This document shows, in pieces, positions 2,542 through 60,705 of a DNA stretch of 64,000 nucleotides. The stretch lies in the IMG/VR virus record IMGVR_UViG_3300009370_000001. One strand, 5' to 3'. This DNA is from a virus. Lineage: Duplodnaviria; Caudoviricetes. The position numbers and the translations under genes are program-made. The number at the start of each line of letters is the position of its first letter. The first letter of the stretch is position 1. Under the pieces are notes generated by a model. It was given only the letters and a program-made list of their open reading frames with translations. It was not told where the DNA came from and ran no database searches.

Positions 2542-2763
2542 ATGATGTTTGAAGCAGGCGAAAAAGTTATTGTAATGGCAGGCAGTGTTCATTCTCCGTC
2601 CTATCTACAGGGCGAGAGCGGAATGATCCTTGAAGTATCGGGATCATCTGATTATGTACCTGAACATTATACTATTAAGTTTGAGAAAGAGACTCATATT
2701 CTTTATGGGTCCGAACTACGGAGAGAAGAAAGTGAACAAGACGTGACGTATGAACTAAAATAA
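2542..2763 (+). CDS. KOW/SH3-like microprotein
   Basis: FEAGEKV...GMILEV...SELR; GGAGG RBS. Confidence 0.65.
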   Translation: MMFEAGEKVIVMAGSVHSPSYLQGESGMILEVSGSSDYVPEHYTIKFEKETHILYGSELRREESEQDVTYELK

Positions 2764-2769
2764 GTGGTT

Positions 2770-2924
2770 GGCCCCTGGAGTAATACTTAAGGACATTCGG
2801 GTTCAATGTCTACAATGAACCTTGTACCCATCTGGTGAGGTGAAACCTGCGAGGGTAATGCAGGAGTGGAAAGTAGGCTAACGAGTGGAAGACGCGGTGA
2901 AGACAGCGTTCCTCTCCAGGGGCC
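2770..2924 (+). ncRNA. candidate structured ncRNA of unknown family
   Basis: 11-bp closing stem 2770-2780/2914-2924, internal H-type pseudoknot and two hairpins in an intergenic gap. Confidence 0.55.
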
Positions 2925-2969
2925 TTTACATTGATTTGACTTGACAAAGAGAAGAAAATGAGATATATT
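2925..2969 (+). promoter_or_regulatory. sigma70 promoter with extra upstream boxes
   Basis: TTTACA 2925, TTGACT 2936, TTGACA 2941, 17 bp spacer, TATATT 2964. Confidence 0.7.
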
Positions 2970-2975
2970 ATACAT

Positions 2976-3182
2976 ATGAAAAAGGGTGACGTAGTTAAGT
3001 TTGTTTCTCCCCCAGGACTTCACCACTTGGATTCGGTGATGAACTGGAAACAGCAGAGTCCTGGTTTGGTCGTGGGGAGCAAAGACACTTCTCTCAAGAA
3101 GCGGTCTTATGAAGTGCTGTGGAAGAACGGCGAAAGAACTTTTGAATGGGAATCATATTTGGAGATTATTAGTAAAGCATGA
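2976..3182 (+). CDS. KOW/SH3-like microprotein, probably leaderless
   Basis: MKKGDVVK...GLVVG...LEIISKA; ATG 7 nt after the -10. Confidence 0.7.
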   Translation: MKKGDVVKFVSPPGLHHLDSVMNWKQQSPGLVVGSKDTSLKKRSYEVLWKNGERTFEWESYLEIISKA

Positions 3183-40972: not shown

Positions 40973-41198
40973 ATATAACGGACACTATATCATGGGCGAC
41001 TTGGTCGGCTCACACAAAACAGAAGCTGCCGCCATGAAAAAAGCAAAGAAAGAAATAAAATTTAAATTTTCTGTGAGAGAAAAGAAAAAGAACGAGATAC
41101 TTATTTGGCTTGATGGTGAAAACCACGAACCACTAGGAGTTATCACACACGAATTAAAGGGGACGAAACGGCCTCGACAGGGTAAGGAGAAAGGATAG
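40956..41198 (+). CDS. hypothetical protein whose 3' end overlaps the tmRNA
   Basis: ORF track. Confidence 0.55.
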   Translation: MWKVYKYNGHYIMGDLVGSHKTEAAAMKKAKKEIKFKFSVREKKKNEILIWLDGENHEPLGVITHELKGTKRPRQGKEKG

Positions 41199-41580
41199 TG
41201 CAAGTAGTCAAACGTACCAGCAGACTTTAAATGCAGATACAAAACATAATTGCTAATAATAATAACAATTTCGAATCTGTCCGCTTAGCGGCTTAATCGG
41301 GTGGTTACCTAAAGCCATCAATCCAATTTAGGTATTTATCGCAACAGGATGGTAAGCGATATCTTATAGCCATCTATCTTTTTGTTAGTTTCTGATAGCA
41401 AACTGACGCATCGATTGGAAAGGGTGAGGGTTTAGCTTGTCAGTCGATTAATCACCCCGCTTTTGTTGATTTTCACATAGCGGATGCCGGCCGTCAGACC
41501 GGTAAAAATCAACTAAACTTGTGAATGACTTGAATTTTAATATGCTTTGGACGCGGGTTCGACTCCCGCCGTCTCCACCA
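41159..41580 (+). ncRNA. ssrA: tmRNA; tag peptide ANNNNNFESVRLAA encoded at 41252-41296
   Basis: GGGGACG/CGTCTCC-ACCA acceptor with G3:U70, GGTTCGACTCC T-arm, ATAATT-GCT resume context, tag ends LAA. Confidence 0.93.
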
Positions 41581-59174: not shown

Positions 59175-60049
59175 AATACATCTGTTATAATTGGATGCCC
59201 CTAATGGCCACACAAGGTTTAGATCTGCCACCGCAGTTTTATACAAATGCCGGTACCTCTCGACTGCACGACTTGCCTCCCCTCAATCCTGCGAGTTTAC
59301 AAACAAATGAAACAATTTTTGTTAAAACAGATTATGTTGTAAATGGATATTTCCAAAATCATTATTTACGGCAAATCAATACAAAATTTAATCTTATTAC
59401 CGGCGTATCTGCTTATCATCTGGGGAGGGATGGAGGAAATGTTTATCAAGCAATTTTGGATCATCCCCACTTAAATAAGTGGATTTGTTCGAATCCTCCA
59501 GATATTGATGATGACCGAATCATTCCGATGCCTATTGGTTTTCAAGAACCAGATCGACAGGGAGGATATCAAGAATTTCTAGAACAAATTCAAGAATGTC
59601 GAACTCCTTTCGAGAAGAAAGAAGACGGTGTTTTTTTGCCTTATCATGATTTGAGCACAAACCCTCAAAGGGCTCAATTATTTCAAAAGCTCAGCCAGTT
59701 GCCCTTTGTACATGTACAAACAGAAAAACAAGATTTAATAGAATATTATGCGAGCTTAGATAAGTATAAATTTGTAATTGGTCTTGAGGGCCGCGGCCCC
59801 GATATTCATAGGAATTATGAGACCCTGCTCGTTGGCTCCATACCAATCGGTGTTAAAAATGTGATAAAACGCGTATTTGATTATCATCAGGTTGAGAGCG
59901 TCTTTTTAAATAATTGGGATGAATTAAATAATAATTTATTTGACACGTTGCTGCAAGCCGGTTATAATACTACTATAAATGATGATTTTTTAATAATAGA
60001 CAAGCACGTTTCTCATCTTAAAAAAATGCTTACTAAAGGAACACAATAA
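59171..60049 (+). CDS. exostosin/GT47-like protein
   Basis: YKFVIGLEGRGPDIHRNYETLLVGSIP. Confidence 0.7.
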   Translation: MKYICYNWMPLMATQGLDLPPQFYTNAGTSRLHDLPPLNPASLQTNETIFVKTDYVVNGYFQNHYLRQINTKFNLITGVSAYHLGRDGGNVYQAILDHPHLNKWICSNPPDIDDDRIIPMPIGFQEPDRQGGYQEFLEQIQECRTPFEKKEDGVFLPYHDLSTNPQRAQLFQKLSQLPFVHVQTEKQDLIEYYASLDKYKFVIGLEGRGPDIHRNYETLLVGSIPIGVKNVIKRVFDYHQVESVFLNNWDELNNNLFDTLLQAGYNTTINDDFLIIDKHVSHLKKMLTKGTQ

Positions 60050-60705
60050 TGCCCGGCCAAATAAATCGAGGTACATTTTTTGGAGATCAAGTTTATAACT
60101 TATCACTTAATAAAAATTTTAAAAATTATGTGGAAGTAGGCACTTGGAACGGTGAAGGGAGCACCAAGTGTTTTATGGATGCACTTCTACAGCGCCACGA
60201 CGAGTCCGTTCTGTATTCACTAGAAGCGAATATTGAGTTTTATACTCAGGCGCGGAGCTATTGGGATCCTTTCATGCTTTTAGTGCGCTCCCCCACGCCT
60301 AAATTACATTTATTATACGGGCGTATTATTGAAGCAGAAGAATTGGTATCCGCAGAAGAAGTACAAAATCACTCTCGATTCCACCAGCATCCCTGGCTGG
60401 AATGGCGTACTCGAAATATTAAAGAGTATGGCGAGTGTGAAAATGTTATAGGGCAGCTGCCATCTGAAATTGATGTATTACTATTGGATGGTGGACAGTT
60501 CTCAACACGGTCGGAATTCAATAAATTAAAAGATCGAACAAAGATTGTATTATTAGACGACACACTGTCTTTTAAGACAGAAAAAGCCCGTGAAGATATT
60601 TTGGCAGACCCTGATTCGTGGACCGTAATCTTTGATAATGTCGCGGATCGCCATGGCGTTTTTATGGCATGCCGCAGCGAATTTGCCCACCTCTTGCGAG
60701 ATTAA
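60049..60705 (+). CDS. class I SAM methyltransferase-like protein
   Basis: VEVGTWNGEGST; LLDGG. Confidence 0.65.
   Translation: MPGQINRGTFFGDQVYNLSLNKNFKNYVEVGTWNGEGSTKCFMDALLQRHDESVLYSLEANIEFYTQARSYWDPFMLLVRSPTPKLHLLYGRIIEAEELVSAEEVQNHSRFHQHPWLEWRTRNIKEYGECENVIGQLPSEIDVLLLDGGQFSTRSEFNKLKDRTKIVLLDDTLSFKTEKAREDILADPDSWTVIFDNVADRHGVFMACRSEFAHLLRD

Follow-up and report, generated by a model that had tools for sequence, protein, structure and literature searches.

The window analyzed here is the whole stretch of 64,000 nucleotides of the virus record IMGVR_UViG_3300009370_000001 (Duplodnaviria; Caudoviricetes), in which four tRNAs and one tmRNA were identified with ARAGORN and Rfam. A promoter at positions 2071–2099 stands ahead of two small ORFs, and the element under study would be the last item of this ORF146–ORF73 unit. 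The tRNA-Leu(UAA) gene at 1956–2043 occupies the same type of slot between two promoter clusters, with a predicted transcript start about 2 nt 5′ of the mature end and no terminator downstream; RNA genes are packaged here as cassettes like the mini-ORFs. Within 2071–2106 and 2941–2978, the strong promoters end 6–7 nt 5′ of an ATG (A2976; MKKGDVVKF...). Given this spacing, translation of these small early genes probably starts on leaderless mRNAs, and the longer ORFs called from 2958 and 2100 probably begin further in. The second of these promoters separates the element from the next gene, which has a probable leaderless start near 2976. The features of the locus were as follows:

2542–2763, + strand: upstream 73-aa ORF (context), with its stop 6 nt 5′ of P1 and with 36 relatives
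2770–2780, + strand: 5′ strand of the closing helix P1, GGCCCCTGGAG; two-sided changes across subfamilies in 12/12 P1 pairs
2781–2798, + strand: linker J1/2, variable, A-rich, 12–20 nt, usually with UAAGG; includes GACATT
2799–2822, + strand: hairpin P2, 7 bp (stem 2799–2805/2816–2822; 10-nt loop 2806–2815), with compensatory variants
2808–2813, + strand: 5′ strand of the pseudoknot, GUCUAC, in the P2 loop; pairs with 2873–2878
2825–2842, + strand: optional hairpin P2a (2825–2831/2835–2842; variable bulge 2838), with a covarying pair 2826/2841
2846–2864, + strand: hairpin P3, CCUGC/GCAGG (2846–2850/2860–2864), variable in loop and length; two-sided changes in 5/5 pairs
2865–2872, + strand: A-rich strand J3/PK, AGUNRAAR, kept in all subfamilies
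2873–2878, + strand: 3′ strand of the pseudoknot, GUAGGC, between P3 and P4
2879–2886, + strand: J PK/P4, near-invariant UARCGAG (2879–2885) plus 0–2 nt, found in every homologue
2887–2912, + strand: hairpin P4 (outer stem 2887–2890/2909–2912; internal loop GA; inner stem CGC/GCG 2893–2895/2906–2908)
2896–2905, + strand: invariant 10-nt loop of P4, GGUGAAGACA; consensus GGYGARRACA
2914–2924, + strand: 3′ strand of P1, CTCCAGGGGCC, followed directly by the TTTACA box (2925–2930) of the next promoter cluster
2941–2969, + strand: sigma-70-type promoter of the next cassette (context), TTGACA-17-TATATT, with 11/12 consensus matches; kept in homologues

Around 45 homologous loci were collected from marine metagenomes and IMG/VR, forming at least eight subfamilies of 125–185 nt, and their habitats were represented by Tara, deep-sea, sediment, and vent metagenomes. 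Many metagenome contigs that share the gene order were reached through relatives of the upstream 73-aa protein, and nhmmer detected the element in all of these contigs save one group, whose diverged copy sits elsewhere. The invariant 22-nt motif yielded about 30 further loci (marine, deep-sea, sediment, vent), and 13 IMG/VR loci were reached through a protein encoded downstream of the element in several subfamilies. Using the covariance model R1, more diverged copies were recovered in IMG/VR as well as in two complete genomes, and a degenerate core pattern added five extra subfamily members, including one that lies on a contig of 203,859 nt.

The two complete genomes (195,690 and 195,459 nt) each carry a single copy, and elsewhere there was one copy per locus. 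Both encode a gp23-family capsid protein, by which the clade is assigned to the T4 type, together with a tmRNA. The carriers are a clade of uncultured marine T4-type phages of about 195–205 kb. No DNA relative was found among the 50,697 deposited phage genomes of INPHARED, a search for cultured relatives gave distant PhoH matches only, and a search of bacterial genomes with the 22-nt motif returned just three matches, which is the chance level. The element is of interest as a fixed, single-copy component of a diverse, globally spread clade of large marine T4-type phages with tRNAs and a tmRNA. Sequence identity was 88–93% for the element and 91–97% for its core, compared with 75–89% for the DNA of the adjoining 73-aa ORF.

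The first-pass annotation had described positions 2770–2924 as a closed RNA structure with an internal pseudoknot, and every stretch that it quoted was found in its place. Its closing helix proved correct: GGCCCCTGGAG (2770–2780) and CTCCAGGGGCC (2914–2924) form a perfect 11-bp inverted repeat, and all 12 pairs of the extended helix covary in relatives, for example as GUCGGUGAGAGA/UCUCUCACCGAC in L100 and GGGCGACUGGCGCAG/CUGCGUCAGUCGUCC in L067. The 12th pair (2781/2913) is formed in many relatives and is U/U in the window. Separated perfect inverted repeats of 11–12 nt at a distance of up to 200 nt occurred four times in the 64-kb window versus about three times by chance, so that P1 by itself is not beyond chance. 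Compared with shuffles, the window copy folded moderately better on both strands (z −3.3 for the + strand and z −3.6 for the − strand).

The alignment A5 comprised 33 distinct sequences and 1239 base-pair cells over 40 pairs. Standard pairs occupied 98.1% of these cells, a value that fell to 36–42% once the partners were slid by 1–3 columns. Two-sided changes were present in 29/40 pairs versus 11.7 in the shuffles, and 0/500 shuffles reached as high a value. Since A5 was fitted to the nested helices, their pairing is favored; the pseudoknot was outside the covariance model, and the anchor-based table was model-free. The UARCGAG strand served as the anchor for this extraction and for the pattern search. 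Despite its absence from the model, the pseudoknot was paired in 98% of its cells, with two-sided changes in 4/6 pairs. The anchor-based extraction gave 13 distinct strand combinations (12 tallied plus that of L099), including GCCUGC/GCGGGC, GUCACC/GGUGGC, GUCGCC/GGUGGC, UUCAC/GUGAA, GUCUCU/AGAGAC, and AUCUCC/GGAGGA. The overall fold is almost certainly a four-way junction closed by P1, with an H-type pseudoknot formed by the P2 loop and positions 2873–2878. Its loops L1 and L2 measure 2 nt each, and the long L3 holds P2a and P3 and is A-rich at its end. Judged from this H-type geometry, the A-rich J3/PK strand could have a triplex role, occupying the minor groove of P2.

Several of the internal pairings proposed in the first reading were retained in this fold, some of them in altered form. 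The GGTTC/GAACC stem stands as part of the 7-bp P2, for which compensatory variants were GGAUUCA/UGAAUCC (L004), GCGUUCA/UGAACGC (L091), and GGGCUC/GAGCCC (L099). The CCTGC/GCAGG stem is P3, which appears as CCUGU/ACAGG in L004 and as CCC-UUCG-GGG in L097. Of GACGC/GCGTT, the inner CGC/GCG was kept within P4, and the A-U pair is A/A in 16/21 close relatives. The stem between GACATT (2792–2797) and AATGTC (2805–2810) had to be abandoned: 73.5% of its cells were paired in close relatives, its central C-G was kept in 3/15, and it was missing from all distant subfamilies. Accordingly, the internal H-type pseudoknot was right as to the hairpin loop that is knotted but wrong as to its partner, which is 2873–2878 and not that stem. 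J1/2, where GACATT is located, differs in length and sequence even between close relatives.

The remaining parts of the fold ranged from optional to strictly fixed. The P2a pair 2826/2841 changes from A-U to G-U to G-C within close relatives, and the hairpin as a whole is longer in L067/L071 and missing from L092/L093/L097 and from the 125–128-nt forms. The outer stem of P4 covaries (GGA/UCC, GAA/UUC, UGC/GCA, GGU/ACC, GGC/GCC, with the register judged by eye), while its inner stem and loop were unchanged in 33/33 distinct sequences. In L101, P4 is a continuous 8-bp helix, GAUGGCGC/GCGCCAUC. The first pseudoknot pair, G-C, has become A/A independently in two lineages (L066:1089–1239 and L101:1529–1708), where both partners are altered to a non-standard pair. 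The near-identical contigs L003:672–822 and L004:672–822 differ by two substitutions, each of which disrupts a P2 pair in L003, and the difference could reflect decay of this copy or a mistake in assembly or sequencing.

Two additional pairings were tried and rejected. Kissing between the P2 loop (UGUCU) and the P4 loop (AGACA) was discarded, as changes in the P2 loop are matched at 2873–2878 and the P4 loop stays fixed (L050, L071, L089, L091, L099). The helix CUCG 2795–2799/CGAG 2882–2885 is perfect in the main family and missing in L004, L067, L100, and L092.

G·U pairs that the other strand would show as A/C numbered 22 in P2, 27 in the pseudoknot, and 22 in P2a, and the + strand is consequently the functional one. 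All flanking genes likewise lie on the + strand. The earlier statement that no credible + strand ORF covers the element agrees with the homologues, in which no conserved ORF was found over it. A small ORF from the AUG at 2806, after the UAAGGA motif, was rejected because neither its start nor its stop is conserved.

The element was compared with known RNAs in Rfam 15, where a gathering scan of the window returned only the four tRNAs and the tmRNA. At E ≤ 10, the region 2650–3050 gave chance-level matches to snoRNA, lncRNA, and plastid families, far below the cut-offs, and at E ≤ 5 nothing was found on the element in three distant homologues. The first-pass annotation had recognized no riboswitch or ribozyme core, and this agreed with the Rfam results for the window copy and the three distant homologues. 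At the element, ARAGORN detected no tRNA, and the 3′ flanks carry no conserved CCA; GGGUUCAAUG begins like a T-arm, but its stem is 7 bp and its 10-nt loop pairs elsewhere. No Rfam match to Y RNA or YrlA was obtained on the element, and TROVE (Ro60) domains and RtcB were absent from both complete genomes, with the TROVE search positive in control genomes. Likenesses to 5S rRNA, SRP RNA domain IV, and the 23S GTPase center, like those to the sarcin-ricin loop and RNase P CR-I, were discarded as short, out of register across subfamilies, and without Rfam support.

Since T4 itself has small non-tRNA RNA genes of unassigned function in or near its tRNA cluster and on the tRNA strand, as is the case for T4-type phages carrying the new RNA, rnaC and rnaD are its nearest analogue in kind. 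In the T4 annotation, these genes (species 1 and species 2; 139 and 119 nt) stand at the end of the tRNA cluster. A cmsearch of T4 69000–75000 with R1 and filters off gave a best score of 8.8 bits, with no hit on rnaC/rnaD. T4 rnaC contains a tRNA-like T-arm (CCGGGUUCGAAUCCCGG) that the new RNA lacks, whereas the H-type pseudoknot and four-way junction of the new RNA are not shared by rnaC/rnaD. The element revives the 50-year-old question of why T4-type tRNA regions carry additional small stable RNAs. GOLLD and ROOL are orphan structured RNAs that are often found in phages or prophages near tRNA genes and are possibly co-transcribed with them (PMC5737381). The phage and tRNA neighborhood is common to both and to the new RNA, but GOLLD and ROOL are 3–5 times larger, come from other hosts and habitats, and gave no Rfam match here; nothing points to multimeric cages of their kind for an RNA of 125–185 nt.

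The signature proposed for the family consists of P1, the pairing of P2 loop positions 3–8 with the 6 nt before UARCGAG, and P4 with CGC/GCG and GGYGARRACA, and it is present in all 33 A5 sequences as well as throughout the anchor-based table. From these sequence comparisons, the structure is near certain, and the element is well supported as a new family of structured phage RNA. The motif might be among the approximately 10,000 (10,006) unnamed viral structured-RNA candidates cataloged from IMG/VR (PMC10690425). The compact minimal form of the RNA, found at L093:11045–11169, has only 125 nt and lends itself to SHAPE, crystallography or cryo-EM, self-cleavage assays, and pull-down experiments.

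The genomic setting differs among subfamilies. L067 and L071 have the order tRNA-Leu, small ORF, element, ORF, and tRNA-Arg/Ile/Lys, and L100 has its own extended −10 promoter (TTGACG-17-TATATT) about 30 nt upstream, followed after the element by an ORF and three tRNAs. Placement among the tRNA genes, as originally described, thus applies to several subfamilies but not to the two complete genomes, where an unrelated 124-aa ORF precedes the element and the tRNA cluster is about 6 kb away. There is no conserved protein neighbor, and the upstream ORFs of the different subfamilies are unrelated. Since the neighbors differ and a promoter intervenes in most subfamilies, the element is not the leader of a fixed gene; with a setting that differs among subfamilies and genomes, it behaves as a self-contained cassette of the promoter-dense, hyperplastic early region, like the PeSL-flanked cassettes of T4-type phages. 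In such regions, recombination at repeated regulatory sequences reshuffles the cassettes (PMC2839356).

Two further ideas about the locus were dropped. A promoter of its own in the window, TGAACA-17-TAAAAT (2733–2761, 9/12), loses its −10 box in close relatives (TAACAG, TAAAAG). The notion that the element replaces tRNA-Met was contradicted by relatives with tRNA-Met in that slot, which carry the element about 6 kb away.

The reading of the element as a phage ncRNA was borne out, as covarying homologues exist and their covariation is strong. Strong covariation together with several invariant unpaired nucleotides almost always means a specific biochemical job, and a long helix that holds the termini is a typical trait of stable processed RNAs. 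As to what this job is, the explanation that we tentatively prefer is that the element is the gene of an early, processed, stable RNA acting in trans. This reading is favored because there is no fixed neighbor gene, a promoter intervenes in most subfamilies, a single copy is conserved across the clade, the termini are locked in a helix, and the placement resembles that of a tRNA gene. Host-type promoters would drive its early transcription, and host RNases would trim the product back to the P1 helix, as tRNAs are cut from the same transcripts; the RNA would then act in trans as a stable species. Its invariant unpaired nucleotides (the P4 loop, UARCGAG, and AGUNRAAR) would form a surface for binding a protein or another RNA, such as a host factor that may be sequestered or redirected early in infection. 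On the + strand of the 64-kb window, no complement to the P4 loop was found. Against the stable RNA, the U-rich tract after P1 in several subfamilies and the adjoining promoter also fit a role in cis at the ends of transcripts.

The exact DNA of the window occurs in four marine DNA runs from a single study, which is probably its source, and two RNA libraries contain small parts of it. In the oligo-dT metatranscriptome X20, 151-nt contigs with a depth of 4 covered 2797–2920 and 2899–3010, the unmatched 5′ letters of the former extending to one base before P1, and no contig covered 2000–2780. These contigs have the length of a read and also extend into the following gene; because they give no ends or strand and may stem from DNA carry-over, they were not counted as evidence. 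In a second RNA library, X19, coverage was confined to tRNA regions.

A lesser possibility is that the RNA is a third RNA related to translation or RNA processing, beside the phage tRNAs and tmRNA, in the form of either a new small ribozyme or a host-factor decoy. As a ribozyme, it would process early polycistronic or tRNA transcripts; as a decoy, its invariant P4 loop would capture a host RNA-binding defense or decay factor. If the decoy form were true, the RNA would be a counterpart in bacterial viruses of adenovirus VA RNA, which has a terminal stem and a pseudoknotted central domain.

We consider it unlikely that the element is a cis-acting 3′-end module of the upstream unit, in the form of an elaborate stem-loop whose P1 and following U-rich tract would stop or attenuate transcription ahead of the next promoter and shield the mRNA 3′ end from exonucleases. 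The model for such a module is provided by the PeSL (promoter-early stem-loop) cassettes of T4-type phages, whose GGGG...CCCC-rich stem-loops serve as terminators (Arbiol et al., 2010, PMC2839356). The likeness includes a G/C-rich helix right 5′ of a strong sigma-70-type early promoter, the hyperplastic region, and the shuffled cassette. P1 ends 0–10 nt from the first promoter box in most subfamilies, a U-rich tail follows it in the window (UUUACAUU), L004 (UUUUUCAUUU), and L091 (CUUUUUUG), and in G001/G002/L097 its pairing continues into the next −35-like box (TTGACA in G001/G002). However, PeSLs are simple hairpins, whereas the “loop” of the new RNA is a conserved pseudoknotted fold of 100–160 nt, and a terminator needs no invariant 10-nt loop, invariant junction strands, or covarying pseudoknot. 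A terminator scan of the window found just a weak local hairpin at 2908–2923 followed by CTTTACATTG, and the “loop” closed by P1 is 133 nt. For intrinsic termination, a loop of about 130 nt is kinetically poor. Moreover, L100, L067, L071, and L099 have neither a U-tract nor a promoter after P1, and in the first three the element precedes an ORF. No dedicated stem-loop stands before any of the other 14 promoter clusters of the window.

Distinctly unlikely, in our judgment, is a new class of RNA with self-cleaving or other catalytic activity, which would cleave the polycistronic early transcripts where cassettes meet. A compact pseudoknotted junction with an invariant core is the usual appearance of small ribozymes, and the element combines a multi-helix junction and a pseudoknot with peripheral helices that are optional and unpaired nucleotides that are few but strictly invariant. 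It also sits at the borders of transcript units, beside tRNAs that need excision. On the other hand, there was no Rfam ribozyme match, and no candidate cleavage site could be named. The hammerhead was rejected specifically: CUGGUGA at 2832–2838 deviates from the core CUGAUGA by a G in place of the invariant A6, and it lies within P2a, which is missing in whole subfamilies.

It is very unlikely that the element is a ligand-sensing, riboswitch-like aptamer tuning read-through into downstream genes or tRNAs. The SAM-I aptamer has a four-way junction closed by P1 and a terminal P2 loop paired to the strand that links P3 and P4. The helix connectivity of the new RNA is alike, with the same four-way junction and pseudoknot between the P2 loop and J3/4; its core is fixed while the P1 sequence varies freely, and the L100, L067, and L071 copies lie 25–50 nt ahead of an ORF followed by tRNAs. 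None of the conserved nucleotides of SAM-I is present in the new RNA, however, and the Rfam SAM, SAM-IV, and SAM-I/IV models, like the other Rfam riboswitches, gave no match on the window copy or the three distant homologues. There is no expression platform and no conserved alternative pairing downstream of P1, be it an alternative terminator or an RBS-sequestering helix, and no sulfur-metabolism gene follows. In most subfamilies, a promoter stands between the element and the next gene, and the downstream genes, which differ among subfamilies, lack a known metabolic role.

It is highly improbable that the element works at the level of DNA, as a recombination hot spot, an origin, or a packaging signal whose inverted repeats act in DNA rather than RNA. 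The shuffling of cassettes in the region and a position that varies between related genomes might speak for such an element. Against it, the G·U pairs that are frequent in four helices would turn into A/C mismatches on the complementary strand and make a cruciform asymmetric, and no role in duplex DNA is known for a covarying pseudoknot. Single-sequence folding was equal on both strands and therefore counts neither for nor against it.

Several minor observations were made at the borders of the element and in its surroundings. At L092:5072–5199 (−), L097:10834–10961 (−), and L101:1529–1708 (−), the element is flanked by UGUCAA ... UUGACA, and P1 is therefore extendable by 6–9 bp into the first −35-like box of the next cluster. 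L031:908–1010 has an insertion of about 35 nt after P1 that repeats the 3′ strand of P1 and contains a small, terminator-like GC hairpin, CCAGGGGC-UUU-GCCCCUGG. The tRNA cluster is variable when L077–L086 are compared with the window, L067, L071, and L087: some relatives add tRNA-Met(CAU), tRNA-Arg(UCU), and tRNA-Asn(GUU), and the order of Lys, Ile, and Arg shifts. The phage tmRNA of the window is located at 41159–41580 and encodes the tag ANNNNNFESVRLAA, and the tmRNA genes of the complete relatives are located at 59924–60255 in G001 and 85525–85864 in G002.
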